A stretch of 64,000 nt of DNA, taken from positions 34,720,001 through 34,784,000 of the forward strand of contig OX597823.1 in the NCBI GenBank assembly GCA_951406725.2. The letters are read 5' to 3'. This stretch comes from Octopus vulgaris (taxonomy: Eukaryota). The translations under genes were made by a program, and so were the position numbers. Each line of letters starts with the position of its first letter. The first letter of the stretch is position 1. The notes below the pieces were generated by a model that ran no database searches, was not told the DNA's origin, and saw only the letters and a list, made by a program, of their open reading frames with translations. Below, in pieces: positions 9,101-48,016 of this stretch.

Positions 9101-10040
9101 CTTAAATATCCGGCTTTCATTAATCTATGGTGCAATTATTCGTGTGAGGGATGAGGAGAGAGACGAGGAAAGAGGGGAAGGCAGAGCTCGATCTCGCCAC
9201 AGGAGAGGAAGGAGAGAGGAGGAGAAAGGGGGAGAGGGGTGACAGAATGCGACCATGGCAGGTTTAAGCGAAATAAACATGAAAACAAAATCTTAGGGAC
9301 CTTCGTTGGGGTGTATAAGAGGAGGTGTCAGCAGGTAGATTGGTGCGAAGGATGGGAACAGAAAGCTAGGGGAGGGTCCATGGACATCTGACGGGTGCCT
9401 CTAGAAGCGTAGCTAAGAGATGAAGAGGGTTCCGCGCTCAAGCGATACTTTTATGAGGGAGGCAATTTTGGGTTTATTGCATAAGTCTGTATATACATAT
9501 ACACATACACCGAAAAAACACAAAACACAGACCTACGCACAGCTGTCTACGTCACAAAATAGCTTTCTACGTCACACTAAGATAATGCACTTAATTATTT
9601 CAAATGAAAACAAACAATACGATTGGTTAAAATTCGCAGATTTAATCTACGTTTAAAGTTATAAAATACATTTTTCTCAAATAAACAAGTTGAAATTAGT
9701 GTTTTCTTTTGAGACACTCTACCAGTATACGAAGTTTCAAATTATTTAGTTAACTAGAAAAATCTGACAATCAGGCCTTGAAAAGGAAAAGATCCAAGGG
9801 GGATAGTTTTCTTTCGAAGACTCCTGAGGTATCCTATATTCGAGTAAGTAATGACGGAACGTCTACTGCAGGGTGCGAACGCAGCACATTCTACAGAACG
9901 GTTGCGTATTTCGTTATCCGAGCAGCCACTTCGTTTCGATAAGGAATTTTAATTACTGAGATATTACTAACATATCTATTTAGGACAATGGCCTCTGTGT
10001 GAGACCCCTCTCTCCCTCTGAATTGTGAATGACTGAACAG

Positions 10041-10099
10041 ATAACAAGGCCGGCAAAATGAAGTGAAGGGTGTTCACTTCATTTTGCCGGCCTTGTTAT
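10041..10099. repeat. Perfect 27-bp-stem palindrome with a 5-nt loop
   Basis: ATAACAAGGCCGGCAAAATGAAGTGAA-GGGTG-TTCACTTCATTTTGCCGGCCTTGTTAT. Confidence 0.95.
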
Positions 10100-10165
10100 T
10101 TGTTTTGGTTACGTGTGTGTGTATTTATATATTCATTTCTATACATACATATATGCATGCATATT

Positions 10166-10201
<36 letters not shown>

Positions 10202-10206
<5 letters not shown>

Positions 10207-10922
10207 GCTGCGATGGGTAATTTTTACATTTTTAATTTCTCGCATGCGCCTTTTTTGTTTTTTATTTTGTCTACTACACAGTATGGTAGGATCTGTTGGG
10301 CACCGTCTGTGAGAAAAACAGCACCATGACGCAATTCACTCTGCCAGAAATTTAGAAACGATATGCTATACTACTTTGCATTCACGCCGGAAGCTCCAAT
10401 ACAAACATTTCACAGTGTTTGGGTGTCAATCTAAAGACAGAGCAATCTGAGGACCTGTACCGAGAGAGATAAAAATCAAACATCCAGTCAATATCGTGGT
10501 GTTTGGAGTGATCACTAGTGATGGAGACGTTATGCCTCTATTCCTCTTACCACACGGCCTCAGACTCAACGCGAAGGCCTACTTCAAGGGGTAGTGCTGC
10601 CCCGGGTCAAGAGGGTGACTGCTGGAAGACTCTATGTCTAGCAACACGACTCCGCCCTATGCCACACAAGCAGGAGAACCCAGTCATGGCTGTCAGATAA
10701 TTTTTGCGACCACATCACTCCTAACATCTGGCCACCTAACTCCCCAAACTGCAACCCCCTTGATTATTATATGTGTGGCGCAGTTGAGCGAGAGACCAAA
10801 CAAAACTCCTTGTAACACACCTAAGATAGACAGAAGGCAAGGATTACGACAGCATTCACCAACCTAAACAAGGAGACCGTCCACAAGAGTTGCAGTAGAC
10901 TCCGAAGTGGTCTGGAGGCCGT
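10202..10922 (+). mobile_element. Decayed, internally deleted Tc1/mariner DD37D (maT-type) transposon, truncated by the gap
   Basis: Translates KHPVNIVVFGVITSDGDVMP...*QHDSALCHTSRRTQSWLSDNFCDHITPNIWPPNSPNCNPLDY, with 37 residues between the last two Asp. A related terminus lies at ~59340-59450 (minus). Confidence 0.85.
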
Positions 10923-11022
10923 NNNNNNNNNNNNNNNNNNNNNNNNNNNNNNNNNNNNNNNNNNNNNNNNNNNNNNNNNNNNNNNNNNNNNNNNNNNNNN
11001 NNNNNNNNNNNNNNNNNNNNNN
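10923..11022. other. Assembly gap (100 N)
   Basis: Run of N. The flanks belong to unrelated elements (DNA transposase on the left, LINE ORF2 on the right). Confidence 1.
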
Positions 11023-12099
11023 GACATGCGCTGAGGTTAAGACATCTGTGGCTCTACCTGGATGGTGAACGGGTGTGGTCTCCGTTAGCAAAACTGATGT
11101 TTCCCAAGTTCACTAGTTTCGGTGGATGGGAAACCTGGCTGAATCGTAGATCGAAACTGGTACATGGTACACGGAGTGTCGCAAGGCTCTCCTGCTATTC
11201 CGTCGCTCGGGCAACGCCTGCGGTGGGGGTTCCACCACATTCTTCTATAGAGGGTTGGTAGAGGCGGAATGTGAAGACACCTTGGGGAAACCCTGGGTCT
11301 CGACGATAATCAGCTGGCCAGTCTGTTCCGACGTACGTTCGAGCCGAAGACACTGGACAACTTCCAGAAGTCTCTGGCATGGCAATGCTACAGAGGAGCT
11401 CTACCTGTTCGGGATAAACTCGCAAGGCACGGTGGCCAAGACAGTCCGATATGTCCAAGATGCGGGCGGGATAGGGAAACCGTCCCGCACGCTATTGTTC
11501 ATTGTTCGGACGTGTCTGAGGTGTGGGTTTATGCCGAACAGCTGTTGTCAAGCACACGAAGAGTACAGCTGTCGACTGAGTCGATTAAAAAAATTGACCC
11601 ACCAGATTTCCTCGCGAAAGAAGGTAAGTTTGTTTTCTCGTTGTGGTAGCAATTGCGAAAGAGGTGATATGGAAGACGAGAATGAAAGGTATACAGTCAG
11701 GCAAGTTCATATCCGGCCCTGGTTTGATGAATTACTTCATCTACCACCTGAAAAGGAAGATAGGGCTGGAGAGAAATGCCTGACTAGGAGAGTGTATGAA
11801 GAACGATGGAAGGATGTAGCACGGAAGTTGAGAATGAAATGACACCACATAAATGTAGATCAAAACGAAACCAAAAGTATCAGTGGTGAGGCGGGGCTCG
11901 TGGGGTCCGAGCTGAACCCGCCCCACTCCACCTGTAGTGTCTTCCGGTCTTTTCCTCATTCGATTTTTTAATTTTTGCAATTTTTGTAATTTTTGAAATT
12001 TTTAAACTCGATTTTTTGTAAAACCCATTCGTGAATCTGACCCCACATCAGGTTGTATTGTCCTCTTATGTTCGCCCCTTGTGGGTAATAATAAAACAC
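11023..12099 (+). mobile_element. 3' end of a Tx1/L1-clade non-LTR retrotransposon (ORF2 C-terminal zf-RVT domain plus 3'UTR)
   Basis: A frame missed by the ORF track reads LAWQCYRGALPVRDKLARHGGQDSPICPRCGRDRETVPHAIVHCSDVSEVW, the zf-RVT CCHC motif of L1/Tx1. The 3'UTR has a GCGGG-GCTCG..CGAGC..CCCGC hairpin and ends in TTGTATTGTCCTCTTATGTTCGCCCCTTGTGGGTAATAATAAAA. Confidence 0.88.
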
Positions 12100-12113
12100 C
12101 CGATAGACGTTAC

Positions 12114-12161
12114 CGATTGTATTGTCCCCTCTATGTGGCCCCTAGTGGGTAATAAAGAAAT
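12114..12161 (+). mobile_element. 48-bp, extremely 5'-truncated retrocopy (3' tail only)
   Basis: CGATTGTATTGTCCCCTCTATGTGGCCCCTAGTGGGTAATAAAGAAAT, flanked by CCGATAGACGTTAC (12100-12113) and CCGATAGGACGTTAC (from 12162). Confidence 0.8.
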
Positions 12162-12177
12162 CCGATAGGACGTTACT

Positions 12178-13936
12178 TCTATGCGTGTTGTTATCTGTGA
12201 CTAGACGGTGAAGTTTTTTCTGTGTAAATTGATTTAATATCGCGCGTGGCGTTTGCCTCCACGTGTGGAAACCTTCCGAAGAAGGTGAATTGACCCTCCA
12301 GTCATGGCGACTTACGCGGGGGTCACCGGGAAAAATAACGATTCGGCGATAATCATAAAGGAGGTTTTCTTTGAGAAGGATAAACTCAAAGAATATGAAA
12401 AGCTCTTCAAAAGGGAGGGTGATAGCGTGAAGCTAATCCCCCCGCGAAAGCAAAAGAGGACAAAGAAAGCAAGACAGTGACATACAGAACCCAAGACAAA
12501 AATACGAAGAAACTGGCAAGAGTGGAGATAGCCGAAATTGAAAAATGTCTGGGAGACATAATGGGGAAAATAACCTATGTGAGTAGAGGCAAGAAATTTG
12601 GTACGGTGGAGGTGAGATGTGCAACGGAAGAAATTGCAGCCTCACTGGCTACCACTGTACTAAGAGCCGAAAAATTCACAATGTGGCCCTCATACAAGGG
12701 AAGAAGAGGGGTCCGGGTTAAAATCCCGAATATACCCCCAGAAGTGAAAACAGAATGGCTGGCAACAGCTATTCTAGGAGCAGCAGAAGAGGAAGTGGAG
12801 GTGGAATCTATTAAGGAGTCCAACGCGGTAAACTGGAGAGGATATGGGGTAGAACTGTGTTTGATGGCCACAAAAGAGGATATTGAAAGGTTCCCCTACA
12901 GAATTGAAATTGAAGAGGAAAAAACCCTCAGTGTAATTGTAGAGGGAAGAAAACCAAACTGTTACTTGTGTGGGACAAGGGGGCACATTAAAAAAGAGTG
13001 CCCGTTATACGAATTCGTAGCGGAGTGCGAGCAGGAACTTGAAGAAAAGAAGAATACTGTAAATGAAAAAGAAAACATAGAAAAGGAAACAAAACAACAA
13101 GAGAAAGGAAATAATAAGTCAATGAAGGAAAAAGAAATAAAAGAAAAGAAAGAAATAGAACCAAAACAGAGTCAGGAAAAAAAAAGGAAAAAGAAACAAC
13201 AGGAAAAAAACAAGAGAGAGATCAGAATCAAACGAAAAGAAAAGACGGCACACAAAAGGAAAAAGAAAAGGAACATAAAACACGAGAGAAAGAGAGAACA
13301 GACAAAGAACCAAAAAGACAAGAGAAGGAAGGAGAAAGAAAAGAAGGCAAAAAGAGAGAAAGAGAGAAACAAAGAGAGGAGAACAAGGAAGAAATAAGCC
13401 CGAAAAGAAAATGAAGGAAAACGTAGGACGGAAACAAGATTACTACTACTACAAGTTAATAACCTTCCATTTCTGCCCTGAAATGAAAGACTTGACATGG
13501 AATACGGAGGGACATATATGGGTCGACAGGAATACCGATCAGTGGCAGGAGACTGCTCTAATCCCCGAAGAAAGAGTCGCTGAGTTCCTCAGAGCTGCCG
13601 GAGAGAGTGTAATATTTTACACGAAGGTTCGAATGAGAGAGCGGCCGCCTGAGGGCTCAGTGATTGACTTTAGAGAATTGAAAGCTATTATGGAATATGT
13701 ATAGAATTGTGAGAAGAAAAAAAAAGTGAAAAAAGAAAATTTTGTGAAATATATGTGACGAAAATGTAACCTCTCGATTCCGGGGATCGAGTGGGCATTT
13801 ACATCTCATTGTAAATATTCTTTCATATGTCATTTTTTACTTTTATTTTTTCCTTTTCTTGTCATTCGCTTTCTTATTTTAAGTTCCCCGATTGTATTGT
13901 CCCTCTATGTGGCCCCTAGTGGGTAATAAAGAAATA
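12178..13936 (+). mobile_element. ORF1-only non-autonomous non-LTR element, copy 1 (HAL1-like; ~32 nt 5'-truncated relative to copy 2)
   Basis: 5'UTR, one gag-like ORF, ~230-nt 3'UTR ending in the Tx1-like tail. No endonuclease or RT sequence. Bounded by CCGATAGGA on both sides. Confidence 0.8.
12304..13704 (+). CDS. ORF1 (gag-like nucleic-acid-binding protein with CCHC knuckle), frameshifted in the assembly
   Basis: ATG 12304 MATYAGVTGK..., CYLCGTRGHIKKEC (CX2CX4HX4C), a K/E-rich linker, and a C-terminal ~90-aa domain ending at TAG 13704. Frame breaks at C6 (12438-12443), A9 (13177-13185) and ~13407. Confidence 0.7.
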
Positions 13937-13945
13937 CCGATAGGA

Positions 13946-15740
13946 GGTTTGAGTTCGGTAGGAACACGTGTCGGAAATCTATGCGTGTTGTTATCTGTGA
14001 CTAGACGGTGAAATTTTTTCTGTGTAAATTGATTTGATATCGCGCGAGGCGTTTGCCTCCACGTGTGGAAACCTTCCGAAGAAGGTGAATTGACCCTCTA
14101 GTCATGGCGACTTACGCGGGGGTCACCGGGAAAAATAACGATTCGTCGATAATCATAAAGGAGGTTTTCTTTGAGAAGGATAAACTCAAAGAATATGAAA
14201 AGCTCTTCAAAAGGGAGGGTGATAGCGTGAAGCTAATCCCCCCCCCGCGAAAGCAAAAGAGGATAAAGAAAGCAAGACAGTGACATACAGAACCCAAGAC
14301 AAAAATACGAAGAAACTGGCAAGAGTGGAGATAGCCGAAATTGAAAAATGTCTGGGAGACATAATGGGGAAAATAACCTACGTGAGTAGAGGCAAGAAAT
14401 TTGGTACGGTGGAGGTGAGATGTGCAACGGAAGAAATTGCAGCCTCACTGGCTACCACCGTACTAAGAGCCGAAAAATTCACAATGTGGCCCTCATACAA
14501 GGGAAGAAGAGGGGTCCGGGTTAAAATCCCGAATATACCCCCAGAAGTGAAAACAGAATGGCTGGCAACAGCTATTCTAGGAGCAGCAGAAGAGGAAGTG
14601 GAGGTGGAATCTATTAAGGAGTCCAACGCGGTAAACTGTAGAGGATATGGGGTAGAATTGTGGTTGATGGCCACAAAAGAGGATATTGAAAGGTTCCCCT
14701 ACAGAATTGAAATTGAAGAGGAAAAAACCCTCAGCGTAATTGTAGAGGGAAGAAAACCAAACTGTTACTTGTGTGGGACAAGGGGGCACATTAAAAAAGA
14801 GTGCCCGTTATACGAATTCGTAGCGGAGTGCGAGCAGGAACTTGAAGAAAAGAAGAATACTGTAAATGAGAAAGAAAACATAGAAAAGGAAACAAAACAA
14901 CAAGAGAAAGGAAATAATAAGTCAATGAAGGAAAAAGAAATAAAAGAAAAGAAAGAAATAGAACCAAAACAGAGTCAGGAAAAAAAAAGGAAAAAGAAAC
15001 AATAGGAAAAAAACAAGAGGGGCATCAGAATCAAACGAAAAGAAAAGACGGCACACAAAAGGAAAGGAACATAAAACACGAGAGAAAGAGAGAACAGAGA
15101 AAGAACCAAAAAGACAAGAGAAGGAAGGAGAAAGAAAAGAAGCCAAAAAGATGGAAAGAGAGAAACAAAGAGAGGAGAACAAGGAAGAAATAAGCCCGAA
15201 AAGGAAAATGAAGGAAAACGTAGGACGGAAACAAGATTACTATTACTACAAGTTAGTAACCTTCCATTTCTGCCCTGAAATGAAAGACTTGACATGTAAA
15301 ACGGAGGGACATATATGGGTCAACAGGATGACCGATCGGTGGCAGGAGACTGCTCTAATCCCCGAAGAAAGAGTCGCTGAGTTCCTCAGAGCTGCCGGGG
15401 AGAGTGTAATATTTTACACGAAGGTTCGAATGAGAGAGCGGCTGCCTGAGGGCTCAGTGATAGACTTCAGAGAAGTGGAAACTATGATAGAATACGTATA
15501 GAATTGTGAGAAGAAAAAAAGAAAAAAGAGAAAAAAGAAAATTTTGTGAAATATATGTGACGAAAATGTAACCTCTCGATTCCGGGGATCGAGTGGGCAT
15601 TTACATCTCATTGTAAATATTCTTTCATATGTCATTTTTTACTTTTATTTTTTCCTTTTCTTGTCATTCGCTTTCTTATTTTAAGTTCCCCGATTGTATT
15701 GTCCCATCTATGTTCGCCCCTAGTGGGTAATAAAGAAATA
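13946..15740 (+). mobile_element. ORF1-only non-autonomous non-LTR element, copy 2 (1795 bp)
   Basis: Highly similar but not identical to copy 1. Begins GGTTTGAGTTCGGTAGGAACACGTG after CCGATAGGA (13937-13945) and ends TAATAAAGAAATA followed by CCGATAGGATGTTACT (15741-15756). Confidence 0.8.
14104..15501 (+). CDS. ORF1 copy 2 (CCHC gag-like), continuous if one base is added to each of two homopolymers
   Basis: Same protein as copy 1. The only breaks found are C9 (14238-14246) and A9 (14980-14988). Confidence 0.7.
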
Positions 15741-15987
15741 CCGATAGGATGTTACTTATTCATCGATACTCAAAAACTGAACTTTCACCAACTGAATACT
15801 CGTCATGTAGTGCCTTACCGCTTTCTGCTGGATTTTACCTCGAGAAAGGAACCCTGAGGAAGGAGGGCTGAATTTCGAATACTTCGTACAACAAACGGCT
15901 GCAGTTTAGGAAAAAAAATGTAATCGCCTCTTTCAATTTAGGTTTTCATTTTTCATGTTTTTATTTGTATTCATTGTTATGTTTATA

Positions 15988-16470
15988 TTGAGTTATCCGG
16001 AAAGTTCGTTCCGATTTTTAAAGGAAAGTACATGGTCACTAAATACTCTTCCCAGAATTGGGGTGGTTTCAAGGCAAATAATTCATCAAGGTATCTTTTT
16101 ACGTCATCTAAGGAATTGAAATTTTCACCATTAAGACTATTCTGCAGAGACCTGAATAAGTGGAAATCCGAAGGAGTAATATCTGGTGAATATGGAGGGT
16201 GGGGTAAGTCACCCCAGCCAAGCTGCAGCAATTTTTGTCTGGTTCCCAAAGCATCAAATGCCGATAATGAATTTTTCTCATCTTTTAATTTAAAGGGTTA
16301 CAGAATTAACACAGGTTATTGGAACATAAACCTTCTTCCACGAAAAGATAGATTAAACTGTGCTCCAAATGGAGGTGTAGTCAAATCCTATTTTATGGAC
16401 TCAAACATGTTCTAAAATAAGTCGAAAGATAAGCTACTATAAATCTGCAAGAACTTTCCGGACAACCCAA
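15988..16470 (-). mobile_element. Internally deleted mariner element (483 bp) with both TIRs and TA TSD
   Basis: TIRs TTGAGTTATCCGGAAAGTTC / GAACTTTCCGGACAACCCAA, TA on both sides. Encodes LGWGDLPHPPYSPDITPSDFHLFRSLQN. Confidence 0.9.
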
Positions 16471-16870
16471 TATTTCTATATTTTTATCATGAAATTCTTA
16501 ATATAAATATGTGGATATTCGTATGGAATAATACCTCATGTGCTACATCTGAATTTTCTTGTCTGAATGTTTTAAGACAAATATCCGAAATTTTTATCGT
16601 ATACCACATTTTATTAATACTTAGCTCATATACGGAGACAAAAATGTTGTACTATATACTGCAGGTTATCTCCATTAAAATTATATTTAGCATTAGAATT
16701 CTTCAAGTAGTATAAAAATGGTTATTGTCTGCATCATTCGAAAGCGAAATAAATTTTGCATAAGGTGTAAAAGATAAAAAATAATTTGTATGGTGTTAGT
16801 AACAAAATATTTTGTAAGAAATAGAACTTTTATCGTCTGTCTTAAATATATTTTCGCCAGTGTATATATC

Positions 16871-19432
16871 TCAGGTCATCCCATAAGTTCTGTCTGAATT
16901 TTGGATAAAGAATACAAGTGATCAAATGTTATATTTAATTGAAAGTTAATCATCAATGTACTTTCCCTAATTATCTATGACTTACCTCCATCTATTTACA
17001 AGCTTTTTAATCCCATCAACGTAAAACTCTTTTGGTTTGAAAGCGAAGAACTCTGAAATGTCAGGTTCGACCTCCCCCTGGCTTGCGAAAGTTGTATCCC
17101 CCTACTAATTCTGTAAACTATGAAACAAATGGTATCCTGAAGGAGTAAGGTCGGGAGAATAAGTTGGATGAAGAAATTTTTCCAAACCGACCCCTTCGAT
17201 CTTCTGTGATGTGATCTTTGCAGTGTGGGGTTGCGCATTGTCCTGATGAAACATCACTCGTTTTCGACTCACTAAAGCGGCTCTTTTTTCCTTCAAAGCT
17301 TGGTTCAAACGCTCTAATTGCTGACAGTAGACTTGAGCATTGATTGTTGCATTGGGTGGTAACAATATAAAGTGAATTACGCCTTTGCAATCGCACCAGA
17401 TAGAGAGTAGAACCTTTTTCCCATGAAGTTCCCTTCTCGGTTGTGGTTGAGAATTTTCCCTTTTACCAAGCCACTGTTTACGACGTCTAACATTTCGATA
17501 GAAAATCCATTTTTCATCACAAGTCTATCGAAAAAGGGTGAAATGAGTTCGCGAGAATGGAGAGAAGAGCAGATACCAACTCGGGATTTGCGGTTGCTTT
17601 CGGACAATACATAAGGCACCTATTTTCCAAGTTTAGGAACCTTTCCACGTTGTTGAAGATGACGATGAACTGTTGTATGGTTTGAAGTAAGCTTTATTGT
17701 CAATTCTTCAACTGATAATGACGGATTTTCTTCAAGTAATGCCTCGAGGAGCTTGTCAAACTCAACTGGACATCCTGTTCGATATTCATCTTCAATTTTG
17801 CAGACGATCTCCTGCAAGTTCTTTCATTCGAGCACTTTGCTATAAACTGAGTGTATGTTTCGAGTCACTTCGGCATCAGAATTACCTTTATTGTACTCAT
17901 AAAGAATTATATGTGCCTTAAATGCTCCTTGGATACTTCCATGTTGAAAGGGTTTTAATCAAAGCAATTTTAGGGTGTCCACGAAGTCTGGGTTTATGGA
18001 ATAAAATCATAACATAAACAAATAAATATAAGAAATAATAATTTTCCTTTTTTACTTTTGTTTAAATTAAATTTTAAAATACTTTACTTTTCTAAATTTA
18101 TTTGTTATTTTTTCTACAGATGATCGAATGATGGCTCTGTCTAAAGAAGAAAGAATCCCAGATCGAATGATGAATCTGTCTAAAGAAGAAAGAATCGAGT
18201 TAGTATTATTAAGTGGACGAGTAGGATGGTCTTATCGCAAAATTGCGGAAGAATTTAATCTTCCACACCCTTGTAGGCAACCTATTTATTTTACTGCCGT
18301 CAGGAAATTGATCAAGAAATTTAAAGAAACAGGCAGTGTTTCGGATAAACCCCGTTCCGGTCGACCAAAGACTTCAGATGAAACTAAAGAGGCTGTCGAG
18401 GCTAAAGTTTCTGCTAGCTAGCCCCCAAAAATCACTTCGTCGGACATCTACGGTGTTAGGTGTTCCAAAACCAACCATCCACAAAATGCTGGTTGAAGAA
18501 AAGTTTCATCGATACAACCTACAGATATTGCATCACTTAAATTAAGACGATCCTGATAGACGAATAAATTGGATGAAAATATCAATTTTACGAAAAACTT
18601 TGTGTTGTTCAGTGACAAAGCTACGTTTTATGTAAATGGTGAGGTCAACAGACAGAATCTTCTATACTGGTCTCGAGGTAATCCACATTGGATGGATCTA
18701 TCCAAACAGCAAGACAGCAAAAAGGTGATGGTGTGGTGTGGTTTTTGGAAAGCTCATGTTCTAGGACCCTTCTTCATTGAACATGTAACGGATGAGACTT
18801 ATGCAAATATATTGAGAGACAAATTAATATCTTAAATTGAGCGCCTAGGCGAGGACCTTCCGAATTGGTTTCAGCAGGATGGGGCCCCTACCCATTTTGC
18901 CACAACTGTTAGAGATTGATTTAATGACACGTTTCCTCCTCACTAGATTGGAAGAAGGGGTCATATGGAATGGTCCCTTCGTTCACCAGACCTTTCTCCC
19001 CTTGATTTCTTTTTCTGTGGTATGTTGAAAGAGAAAGTTTACTCAATAAAGATTACAGATTTAAAACACATGAGAGAACGCATTATCAGTCAGTGTGCTT
19101 AAATTGATGGCAATGTAGACTTATTTAATCAAGTTCACCTGAATTTTGCAAGGCGCATCAAGTTATGCATTGAAAATGATGGAAATCACTTTGAAAATAT
19201 TATTTATTATAATTAAATAAAATTGATTTGTTTTAAAAGTATGTGTTAATTCCCATGTATGCAAACTTTGTGGACACCGTCTATTATTTTGTAAAACAAT
19301 ATTGAATTAGTTTAAACGTACACAAATGCATAAAAATAATTTTTAATTGAATTAGACATTTGCAAATACTATTAAATTTCATTCAACTCTAAAAAACAGG
19401 TAAAATTGGACAGAACTGACTGGATGACTTGA
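16871..19432 (-). mobile_element. Decayed mariner transposon hosting a nested DD41D element
   Basis: TIRs TCAGGTCATCCCATAAGTTCTGTC / GACAGAACTGACTGGATGACTTGA. Fragments FHQDNAQPH...HPTYSPDLTPSGYHLFHSLQN and HTH-like LLEENPSLSVEEL...TTVHRHL. Confidence 0.85.
17971..19283 (+). mobile_element. Near-full-length decayed Tc1/mariner DD41D (rosa-type) transposon
   Basis: TIRs GGTGTCCACGAAGTCTG / CAAACTTTGTGGACACC. Encodes KFKETGSVSDKPRSGRP, FSDKATFYVNGEVNRQN and FQQDGAPTH...WSLRSPDLSPLDF (41 codons between the Asp residues, two of them now stops). Confidence 0.88.
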
Positions 19433-30121: not shown

Positions 30122-31228
30122 TCATTTGTAAACATGTATCTGGGTAGAGTCACTAATCAATGACTGAGCTGCATATTTCTTGAACATGCTCCAAAATGTT
30201 GGAAGAATTGGATCAGTATAATAGTGCACCAAATGTGGGAAAGCTTTTCGGAAATGGCTAGTGGCTTCTGGAAGATGATAGTGGGGTACTATACTAAATA
30301 GATGGTGGATCTGGTGTGTGCCGATGTCATGGGTTAATCCATGCACCCAACCATAATCCCTATCAATTGAGGATAATTGCCCTGAAACATAGTTCCATTG
30401 ATCATCTGAATACCAAGGGATGTTGACATCATGGTGGTGTAAGAAAGTAAACACCACCATGTACGTGGAAAACACAAAAAGAGGGATGATATAATGGTGA
30501 ACAAGCATTAGAAACCCTTTCTGGTGGTAAAACATATACAAAATATAAGCCATTATGAAGTCTCCTATAAAAGATAAAGTACATCCCAGGATATGGTTCT
30601 GAAATAGAAAATGGAATAGATTAAAATGATTGACTTGTCGTGGCTTATAACCACGCACCAAGTAGCCAAACCATCCTAAACCAAGACCAAATCCAGGTAA
30701 AAGCTGAGTTGATGTTTTTCGAAATTTTTTCCTGATGGGATAATAGACTTCATCTTTATCAATATTTCCAGTGTTTTTATGATGGTTTTTGTGGGACAGT
30801 TTCCAAGTATAGTAAGGACATAACAGAAAAGAATGTAACAGGGTTCCCATTGTATCGTTTAATAAGGGATGATGGGAGAAAGAACCATGTCCACAGTCGT
30901 GTCCCAGAACAAAAATAGCAGTGAACATGGTCCCTTGTAAGAACCAATAAAGGGGTATATGTACAATTCCTGCCGACACAGGTAAGTTATTCATGGCCCA
31001 CTCACTAATTACGTACAGGACTGTCATACTAACGACATCACGAACAACATAATACATTGATGTAGAAACTTTAGGATTGAAACATCGAGCTGGTATAACT
31101 TGTTTGATTTGCGTGATGGTTGGCAAGTTCTGCGGCACACCAACTTTAAAAAGTTCTTCAACCTCCTGTTCCGAAGTGCCAGATGTTTGCATTGAAGTGG
31201 CTCCATCACAGTCTTCTTCCAAAACCAT
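30122..31228 (-). CDS. Methyl-end (omega-x, Delta12/omega-3 type) fatty acid desaturase; 368 aa from ATG 31228, or 375 aa if the upstream exon supplies MLRHIDT
   Basis: Intact ORF with three His boxes (HDCGH, HKNHH, HQIHH), a FAD2/FAD3-like N-terminal motif PTITQIKQVIPARCF, hydrophobic segments, and no cytochrome b5 domain. ATG lies in ACCATGG just after a polypyrimidine tract plus CAG acceptor (exon starts at 31233). Confidence 0.95.
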   Translation of the reverse strand: MVLEEDCDGATSMQTSGTSEQEVEELFKVGVPQNLPTITQIKQVIPARCFNPKVSTSMYYVVRDVVSMTVLYVISEWAMNNLPVSAGIVHIPLYWFLQGTMFTAIFVLGHDCGHGSFSHHPLLNDTMGTLLHSFLLCPYYTWKLSHKNHHKNTGNIDKDEVYYPIRKKFRKTSTQLLPGFGLGLGWFGYLVRGYKPRQVNHFNLFHFLFQNHILGCTLSFIGDFIMAYILYMFYHQKGFLMLVHHYIIPLFVFSTYMVVFTFLHHHDVNIPWYSDDQWNYVSGQLSSIDRDYGWVHGLTHDIGTHQIHHLFSIVPHYHLPEATSHFRKAFPHLVHYYTDPILPTFWSMFKKYAAQSLISDSTQIHVYK

Positions 31229-31290
31229 GGTGTCTGTCAAAAAATAAAAAAAAAAGACAAAACTGAATAAACATCAAGTGATATAATATT

Positions 31291-46326: not shown

Positions 46327-46600
46327 TAGCAGTATTGCCCGGCGTTGCGGTTCGTTTAGACCCTTTAGAATTGGAATTTTTGAAAAGTAAAAATTTGGCA
46401 GTATGTAGCTTGTTATTCTCTTTAAGTGAAATACACCGAAAAATGGCGACACAGCAGTCAAAACATCGTAAAAAATAAGGATTTTCATAGAAAAAAAGGC
46501 ATCTTTTTGCTTTTTGATGTAAATAATTTTTGGTGTTAACATGGTCCGATTTGAATTTTTTCTTCTACGGAAGGAAGAGTTAGCCTTCTTCTTTCATACT
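46326..46600 (-). mobile_element. Non-autonomous Helitron 3' end
   Basis: Minus strand reads CAACGCCGGGCAATACTGCTAG, the same terminal motif as 23885-23906. Confidence 0.6.
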
Positions 46601-46649
46601 CTCATATATATATATATGTATATATGTCTATATATATATATATATATAT

Positions 46650-48016
46650 ATCCTTGCTCCCGCCCACGTTGCCGCACTTGCCCTTACCTCTCCAACACCA
46701 CCCGCCTCACTAGCACCCACCATCGACCCTATCCCATCATCCACTCCTTCACCTGCACCTCCAGCAATATTATCTATTGCATCTCTTGCTCTCTCTGCAA
46801 TTCCTTGTATATCGGACAAACGGGACGCCGCTTGGCTGACCGGTTCGCGGAACACCTTCGTGACATCCACCTTGCGAACAACACACCGGTCTCACGCCAT
46901 TTCCGCTCCACCGGTCACTCCTTGCAACACCTATCTGTGTTCGGTTTGTCCTTACACAGAGGCCATCCGGATTCCCGTTTGCACCGTGAACAGGAATTAA
47001 TCTTCTCTCTTCGCTCTTATACGCCATTTGGTCTCAACTCTCCCCCCTCCTCATCTAACCCCCTCTCCCCCTCCTCACCTATCCTTTCTCCCCCGACCCC
47101 TACTTCTACAGTCCTTCATCCTTTCACCCCTACTCCCCTTCCCTTCTTCCCTCTTTCTCCCTCCCTCTTCCCCTTCCCTCTGCTCCCTCACTCCCTCTCT
47201 CCCTCTTTCCTCCTTCATTCCCCTCCTCCCCTTCCTTCTCCCCCATCCTCTCCTCTTCCCCCTTCTCCTCCCCCTCTTCTTCCCCTCGCCTTCTCCCCCC
47301 TCTTCTCCCCCTCCCCCTCTTCTCCTCACTACACCACATGACTTTACACATCACATCACATATGATGTGCCATACTAATACACACACCAACTAATACATA
47401 CTAATACGTACTAATACATACCAGTACATACTAATACTTACACCAACCCTATACATACACACGTCCAGACCCCGCATACGCACTTATACTCTCTCACACA
47501 CACACACACACACCTATACATACCAATACGTACTAATACATACTAATACATACTAATACATACACCAACCCCATACATACGCACGTCCAGACCAATCTTA
47601 CGCACTAATACTCTCTCATACACACACACACACACACACACACCCTTATACATACTAATACATACACCAACCCTATACATACACACATCCAGACCCCTCC
47701 CACGCACTTTTAGCTGGTCCCTCAACCCTTTTATCAACCCTATTATCTCCCCTTATTTCGCTCTCGCGTCTCATGTTTGATCTTTGACCTCTGGCCGAAA
47801 TCAGATCGCCATGTTGATTCGTTAGCTACTGCACGCATTTTTTTCTCTCCTTCTTTCTGTGTTTTTCTCTCTCTGTGTATCTTTCTGTTGAAGAGCGTAG
47901 GCTCGAAACGTTAAAGACTTGTTTTATTTATATTTCCTGAGCGCCATACTAATACAATTGTTCGTTTGTTTTCCACCTGCCTTCGTCTTTTGTTTATTTT
48001 CATAAAGCTTCCCGTT
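46650..48016 (+). mobile_element. 5'-truncated Penelope-like element (Neptune-type GIY-YIG endonuclease plus pLTR) in (TA)n
   Basis: PCSRPRCRTCPY...FTCTSSNIIYCISCSLCNSLYIGQTGRRLADRFAEH...VSRHF...HREQELIFSLRSYTPFGLN. The pLTR has a hammerhead-like motif at 47881-47916. A second pLTR copy lies at ~51510-51690 (minus). Confidence 0.9.
47881..47916 (+). ncRNA. Minimal hammerhead-like motif with non-canonical core (CUGUUGA plus an extra A)
   Basis: CTTT-CTGTTGA-A-GAGC-GTAG-GCTC-GAA-ACGT-T-AAAG. A decayed copy lies on minus at ~51592-51628. Confidence 0.55.

Follow-up and report, generated by a model that had tools for sequence, protein, structure and literature searches.

ORF1-only units sharing a 3′ tail and spacer with an L1/Tx1-group LINE in Octopus vulgaris: a probable protein-coding, non-autonomous retroelement family

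How does an element that encodes only the first open reading frame (ORF1) of a long interspersed nuclear element (LINE) come to stand in head-to-tail copies beside a LINE with the same 3′ end? The question is raised by a 64-kb window of the Octopus vulgaris genome (assembly GCA_951406725.2, contig OX597823.1, positions 34,720,001 to 34,784,000), within which all coordinates below are given and in which all parts of the array lie on the + strand. We consider it probable that the two units at 12178-13935 and 13962-15739 belong to a protein-coding non-autonomous LINE family whose RNA encodes its own ORF1 protein (ORF1p) and whose conserved tail recruits an ORF2 protein (ORF2p) in trans. The units were likely copied in trans by an ORF2 of the L1/Tx1 group, and successive insertions into a single site likely gave rise to the stack. 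The anatomy of the units, the common tail, the repeated spacer, the dispersal of the family and the continuity from ORF1 into a short 3′ untranslated region (UTR) across its members are directly seen.

The units lie head-to-tail and each is ∼1.76 kb long, consisting of a 5′UTR, ORF1 and a ∼230-nt 3′UTR that closes with a tail of ∼45 nt common to the LINE. A preliminary description of the locus had reported ∼1.8-kb units with a 5′UTR, a gag-like CCHC ORF region and a short 3′UTR, and this layout is confirmed for both. Unit 1 and unit 2 are identical at 1710/1769 aligned columns (96.7%), differing by 41 substitutions and 18 gap columns, and their 5′ ends are unequal, unit 2 beginning with 16 nt that are absent from unit 1, in agreement with the differences noted previously. 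Unit 2 is near full length, its 5′ end being set by two contigs from other loci. From stop codon to unit end there are 231-238 nt, with 2 substitutions between the units in 238 columns; in unit 1 this 3′UTR (13705-13935) comprises an A-rich stretch, a hairpin-like stretch, a T-rich tract and the tail at 13892-13935, which ends AATAAAGAAAT. The hairpin at 13755-13815 is borderline (10/200 shuffles).

ORF1 extends over ∼467 codons and lacks introns in both units, from the ATG at 12304 to the stop at 13702-13704 in unit 1 (12304-13704) and from the ATG at 14104 to the stop at 15499-15501 in unit 2 (14104-15501). The single open frame of ∼465 codons described previously is obtained only by reading through, as neither copy is open throughout: each contains three frameshifts, two of which fall at the same C run and A run in both. 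The breaks of unit 1 are a C6 run at 12438-12443, an A9 run at 13177-13185 and a third near 13405; those of unit 2 are a C9 run at 14238-14246, an A9 run at 14980-14988 and a 7-nt deletion near 15063. The C run is thus 6 letters long in one unit and 9 in the other, each one letter short of the frame, a frameshift for which slippage, assembly error or recoding may account. As assembled, ORF1p could not be made from either copy.

Upstream of the units lies the 3′ end of a LINE. Its ORF2 piece (11024-11842) is frameshifted and carries a C-terminal zinc-binding motif (zf-RVT, E 1e-9), and it is followed by a 3′UTR (11843-12097) with the terminal ∼45-nt tail at 12053-12097. An assembly gap of 100 N (10923-11022, unstranded) hides the 5′ part of the LINE together with the sequence that flanks the array upstream; the preliminary description had omitted this gap, as it had a 48-nt tail piece at 12114-12161. 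Using tblastn, the LINE ORF2 piece is matched by proteins P0181 and P0186, the matches being spread over several frames. P0181, 62% identical to this piece, has RVT_1 and zf-RVT domains and finds its best PDB match in human L1 ORF2p (E 1.6e-17), R2 reaching only 1.6e-6. With RVT_1 present and L1 ORF2p as the closest solved structure of P0181, the neighbouring LINE, of which only the ORF2 C-terminus is present, is placed in the L1/Tx1 group and no finer. The earlier label of Tx1 stands at the level of this group, L1 and Tx1 taken together.

The units themselves contain no ORF2 between ORF1 and the 3′ end, the organization listed for HAL1, HeT-A and Ag-Sponge. As reported previously, neither endonuclease (EN) nor reverse transcriptase (RT) was found in them: a tblastn search of the whole window with an ORF2 relative matched solely 11061-11777, and no stop-free frame longer than 55 codons, as a trace of ORF2, occurs in the unit 3′UTRs. 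The units nevertheless share their 3′ end with this ORF2-bearing LINE, the last ∼45 nt being identical to the LINE tail at 38/46 and 40/47 columns. Outside the tail, the 3′UTRs of units and LINE are no more alike than shuffled sequences (93/1000 score as well), which upholds the statement that only the last ∼45 nt match. Since the 3′UTRs share the tail alone, the neighbouring LINE may be a helper of the units without being their parent.

A second feature common to all parts of the array is the spacer. In order, the array consists of the LINE 3′ end, spacer, 48-nt tail piece, spacer, unit 1, spacer, unit 2 and spacer. Spacer 1 (12098-12113, ACCCGATAGACGTTAC), a likely target-site duplication (TSD), precedes the 48-nt piece (12114-12161), which is a unit-type 3′ tail alone, identical to the unit 1 tail at 44/45 columns, and likely a 5′-truncated insertion. 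Spacer 2 (12162-12177, CCGATAGGACGTTACT) is identical to the downstream flank at 15/16 positions; spacer 3, together with 12 further nt, occupies 13936-13961 (ACCGATAGGAGGTT, 13/14 like the flank); and the last copy continues into unique flank (15740-15756, ACCGATAGGATGTTACT) and is likely the original target. The same spacer of 14-16 nt, closely resembling the start of the flank, thus stands behind all four pieces, i.e. the LINE, the 48-nt piece and the two units. CCGATAG follows all four tails and occurs six times in the window on both strands, four of these occurrences being the junctions. The ending of three kinds of piece at one position, combined with the repeated copy of the flank, indicates a strong site preference. 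The 12 nt at 13950-13961, between spacer 3 and unit 2, have no counterpart in the flank or in the sequences seen upstream of other copies and are possibly untemplated or template-switched.

This spacer pattern is characteristic of successive insertions that each duplicate the target, a process known for Drosophila elements, among which a double insertion with distinct 5′ ends is recorded (10.1101/158386), and for SINEU-3, a Tx1-linked element with a 16-nt TSD within its tandems (PMC4494074). Sequence-specific Tx1 families of the Keno, Kibi, Koshi and Tx1L type have a single target sequence at all their loci. The common target site proposed previously holds for 4/4 junctions at this locus, but the spacer is missing in the few junctions seen elsewhere, two from other loci among them. 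The candidates for the target are a degenerate motif and the tail of the element itself. No Rfam RNA gene that could serve as a target was matched in 11024-16000, only sub-threshold matches being obtained at 10021-10278.

ORF1 is predicted to encode a LINE ORF1-type protein. In unit 1, a short N-terminus is followed by two domains resembling RNA recognition motifs (RRMs), a CCHC zinc knuckle, a K/E-rich linker and a C-terminal domain of ∼95 aa. An AlphaFold2 model of the 205-aa core, built from 85 sequences, yielded two tandem RRM-fold domains (12435-12950; predicted local distance difference test, pLDDT, 94.7), for which Foldseek gave IMP3 RRM12 as the best match (E 1.2e-5) and comparison with the VIA La RRM gave Z 9.1 at a root-mean-square deviation of 2.8 over 83 aligned residues. 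L1 ORF1p is not among the fold-search matches listed for the core, a result that excludes nothing. The knuckle (12957-13004) matches PF00098 above the gathering score (E 6.7e-5), zf-CCHC being detected by Pfam in both units at E 7e-5 and 4e-5, and a PDB sequence search with the ORF1 profile returned matches to the knuckle only, retroviral nucleocapsids included. Among 85 aligned ORF1 relatives, Transposase_22 was detected in none at E 0.05 and zf-CCHC in 26, while the ESM Atlas lead was to ZCCHC3-type RNA-binding domains (0.90). RRM plus CCHC corresponds to Type I ORF1p, which in animals other than mammals accords with the Tx1 clade (PMC5203782); the predicted ORF1 type fits Tx1. The ribonucleoprotein chaperone that the element was earlier proposed to make for itself would come from intact copies and not from the two present here, which are both frameshifted.

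Constraint on this protein was estimated from the ratio of non-synonymous to synonymous change (dN/dS) between unit 1 and unit 2, a check suggested in the preliminary description, over 451 codons with those at breaks and gaps excluded. In the 235 codons of the core, synonymous changes outnumber non-synonymous ones by 5 to 3 (dN/dS 0.17, p 0.018), a weak indication of purifying selection on the RRM/CCHC region. No significant family match was found for the C-terminal domain. This domain is the most variable part, with 13 non-synonymous changes in 95 codons (13417-13701 versus 15214-15498), and among 14 O. vulgaris models 17/85 of its columns vary compared with 1/49 at the end of the core.

Is this organization peculiar to the locus? 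Evidence for a family was drawn from protein models and sequencing-run contigs. Among named proteins, those nearest to the proteins of this octopus window are O. vulgaris models, at 79-100% identity. A search of the whole library detected 500 ORF1 relatives at E 0.001, and the 7 named relatives among 10 looked up are all octopod. The identical ORF1 C-terminus is present in 18/31 O. vulgaris models retrieved, on 7 contigs, 6 of which are of chromosome size (50-226 Mb), and unit 5′ flanks other than those found here occur in contigs, in support of a dispersed, multi-copy ORF1-only family with copies at independent loci. Five runs of adjacent accessions (e.g. CAI9715245-249) all encode this ORF1 with no other model between, which suggests similar arrays elsewhere. 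EN or RT domains were present in 0/27 proteins scanned and no fused ORF1-ORF2 protein of 1092-3115 aa was found, the latter a weak test. Scans of metagenomes with the ORF1 protein and with the tail pattern gave no matches.

Contigs were mapped on 11024-13976 from 4 of 24 listed public runs (X1, X8, X9 and X11), representing four studies and three organism labels. No RNA run was listed among those that contain the sequence, and runs tentatively marked as RNA were given no weight for expression. Depth over the ORF1 end, the stop plus UTR and the UTR, respectively, is 26, 29 and 26 in X1, 23k, 26k and 32k in X8, 25k, 30k and 25k in X9 and 1.6k, 2.0k and 2.1k in X11. Summed contig depth therefore does not drop from the ORF1 end into the 3′UTR in 4/4 runs, giving no sign of an ORF2 branching off after the stop. 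In the three large runs depth is mostly hundreds of times that of the shallowest contigs listed, although contig depth, by the tool's own statement, does not measure copy number. The stop codon is crossed by an X1 contig that carries 16 differences (13547-13750), and in X8 and X9 contigs the unit 3′UTR runs into a LINE-like tail variant. A junction unique to this locus, which would have told against a family, is thus not what is seen, as it recurs in contigs of other runs. Unrelated sequence without a tail precedes the unit 5′ end in an X1 contig and, in an X9 contig, a tail is joined directly to the 5′ end of a unit; combined, these place the unit 5′ end near 13962-13965. In-frame lengths are restored at two of the breaks by one extra letter at 12437 and 13407 in contigs of 4/4 runs, the third break falling in a stretch skipped as repeat in the mapping, and the Octopus bimaculoides protein P0032 (453 aa, 52%) runs in a single frame across the first break position.

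An additional ORF of 89 aa, whose sequence is the same on 9 O. vulgaris contigs, repeatedly precedes this ORF1 in gene models. P0018, P0019 and P0025 join it to the 3′ half of the present ORF1, and P0003 joins it to that of a 79% relative (model set P0015-P0025). It may represent the end of a second element that forms the upstream part of mixed arrays. By eye, the C-terminal domain is plausibly homologous to this ORF or to the corresponding domain of other octopod ORF1 proteins, but the similarity was not significant (hhalign 14.8 versus a shuffle maximum of 15.4).

For transcription, ORF1p function, the identity of the partner, the order of insertion and the definition of the target, we infer the following course. 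An intact copy would be transcribed and its own ORF1p would coat the RNA; an autonomous family that ends in this tail would supply an ORF2p able to bind the RNA 3′ end, nick the target and reverse-transcribe the bound RNA. Each insertion would duplicate ∼15 nt such that the site stays open for the next, and repetition of this step would produce the observed order of LINE, 48-nt piece and two units, each followed by a spacer. The ORF1 proteins of non-autonomous LINEs have been suggested to multimerise with those of the partner, enhancing transposition (Kojima 2018, available part of PMC5786205).

Several results weigh against this reading. Over the whole of ORF1, dN/dS is 0.47 (p 0.047); the separate values for linker (0.51) and C-terminal domain (0.73) are not significant. 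In X8, X9 and X11 the extra C that restores the frame is carried by no more than 24-41% of the depth, and 0/31 O. vulgaris models begin at the first ATG or upstream of the C run; intact copies may be few. Tail hairpins are not more stable than shuffles in 4/4 tails (z +0.4 to -0.6). With respect to the target, the tail-to-head joint of the X9 contig lacks this spacer, as do the X9 and X11 loose ends that follow a tail of the LINE type, one of these ends resembling the spacer at 6/9 first letters, a similarity spotted post hoc. Adjacency of accessions is a proxy for adjacency of genes, to which isoforms may contribute. A minority of copies may have an ORF2 behind this ORF1, as none of the contigs extends over an entire unit and there are 785 further loose ends beyond those listed. 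Finally, at several sites unit 2 agrees with the majority of the family where unit 1 has a letter of its own, a pattern that decay after insertion and local duplication would produce alike.

Local duplication is the main rival for the origin of the array. The ORF1-only family would be real, but a single insertion would have been copied in place by unequal crossing-over between tails or spacers, which we judge unlikely. The near identity of the units, their 3′UTRs above all, conforms to such an event, as do the missing letter at the same two runs in both and the private letters of unit 1 where unit 2 follows the majority. The unlike 5′ ends, spacers (16 nt versus 14+12 nt) and tail variants do not, however, and duplication of one unit leaves the LINE and the 48-nt piece at the same site unexplained, while the surplus of synonymous changes in the core suggests that the units diverged in lineages that were active. 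The independent retrotranspositions proposed previously are therefore made likely by the ends, spacers and tails, with local duplication as the competing possibility. An artefact of assembly beside the gap, e.g. two alleles or paralogues joined head-to-tail to give the array or unit 2, appears very unlikely: although the array begins at a scaffold gap, no contig spans a unit and the homopolymer frameshifts suggest consensus errors, the junctions differ in sequence yet retain the locus spacer, which continues into unique flank, and both the family and head-to-tail joints are present in independent runs and in the gene models of another assembly.

The two remaining explanations dispute the nature of the element and we regard each as highly improbable. 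That the units are ordinary autonomous Tx1 LINEs from which ORF2 was lost once, at this locus, is prompted by an adjoining LINE with ORF2 and the same tail, whose own ORF1 is hidden by the gap, but is largely refuted by a unit 3′UTR unlike that of the LINE outside the tail, by the steady depth past the ORF1 stop in 4/4 runs together with diverged contigs containing the same junction, and by the runs of adjacent ORF1 models on several chromosomes. Likewise, an element with gag alone between short terminal repeats, or a family of host CCHC genes that expanded through duplication of DNA, the common tail being incidental, could be suspected from the 48-nt piece before unit 1, which mimics flanking direct repeats, and from the match of the knuckle to retroviral nucleocapsids. 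The predicted fold is nevertheless that of tandem RRMs and not of a capsid, the ORF is intronless, the tail is common to an L1-group LINE, and in the X1 contig a unit 5′ end lacks the preceding tail. A non-autonomous LINE family, likely copied in trans, is the reading that we retain.

How does this family compare with known systems? HeT-A makes head-to-tail arrays with autonomous partners; it is telomeric, whereas the octopus array is interstitial and contains spacers. The non-autonomous LINEs listed as retaining ORF1 are HeT-A (Jockey), HAL1 (L1) and Ag-Sponge (CR1) (Kojima 2018, available part of PMC5786205). The hosts so far represented are mammals, flies and mosquitoes. HeT-A and Ag-Sponge belong to other clades, and none of the three is from Tx1. 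HAL1 resembles the octopus units in being a non-autonomous L1-group derivative that encodes ORF1p alone (available parts of PMC5753468 and PMC5786205), but it is of mammalian L1 origin with an ORF1p of the Transposase_22 type, whereas the units have an RRM-RRM-CCHC ORF1 and a mollusc host and are stacked at a common site. With Transposase_22 in 0/85 relatives and the named relatives octopod, the octopus element works like HAL1 or HeT-A but is not HAL1. The crocodilian Tx1 LINE included in the comparison is labelled Tx1-Mar. In the available part of PMC4494074, SINEU-3 of crocodilians is, like the octopus units, non-autonomous, tied to Tx1 and arranged in tandem around a 16-nt TSD beside Tx1 copies; in contrast to the ORF1-encoding units, SINEU is non-coding, has a head derived from small nuclear RNA and targets Mariner-N4_AMi. 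An O. vulgaris repeat annotation (2026) gives 80 L1-Tx1 families, 13 recently active, in the available part of PMC13282606, and the neighbouring LINE and the ORF1 type fit this group. That part describes no ORF1-only family and the supplement lacks the terms ORF1, HAL1, half and non-autonomous, although the associated Zenodo library may hold the sequence unlabelled. Our search of the published literature located no ORF1-only Tx1 or cephalopod family; Repbase and Dfam, outside this search, may already hold one.

Other features of the window include a 383-codon uninterrupted fatty acid desaturase ORF on the - strand at 30122-31273 (PF00487, E 1.4e-24), presumably an omega-type desaturase, and a near-perfect hairpin at 10036-10104 with 32-nt arms, 97% complementary, and a 5-nt loop. 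A 489-nt element with 36-nt inverted ends at 15985-16473 is, we assume from transposase motifs, likely an internally deleted mariner, and a 1.3-kb element with 26-nt inverted ends at 17974-19278 is taken to be a likely decayed Tc1/mariner copy. The ORF piece at 46523-47000 resembles, in our estimation, the GIY-YIG end of a Penelope-like element and may represent one.

More tentatively, and with appreciable doubt, octopods may hold the first Tx1-type ORF1-only retroelements, homing to their own or helper tails in preference to any host sequence and forming mixed head-to-tail arrays on many chromosomes in the manner of HeT-A but off the telomeres. Several such families may exist, as hinted by the 89-aa ORF that recurs in front of this ORF1, and a split system is possible in which the helper LINE, its 5′ end hidden by the gap, depends on the ORF1p of the units. 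If confirmed, the family would constitute an independent ORF1-only case with a Tx1-type ORF1, beyond the three listed lineages (L1, Jockey and CR1), and, as it is apparently young and of many copies, would show that retaining ORF1 while losing ORF2 is a recurring strategy. The system would permit asking whether an element's own ORF1p raises its copying and whether a 45-nt tail is enough to capture ORF2p, and models annotated as uncharacterized CCHC proteins in octopus genomes would be explained as pieces of transposons.

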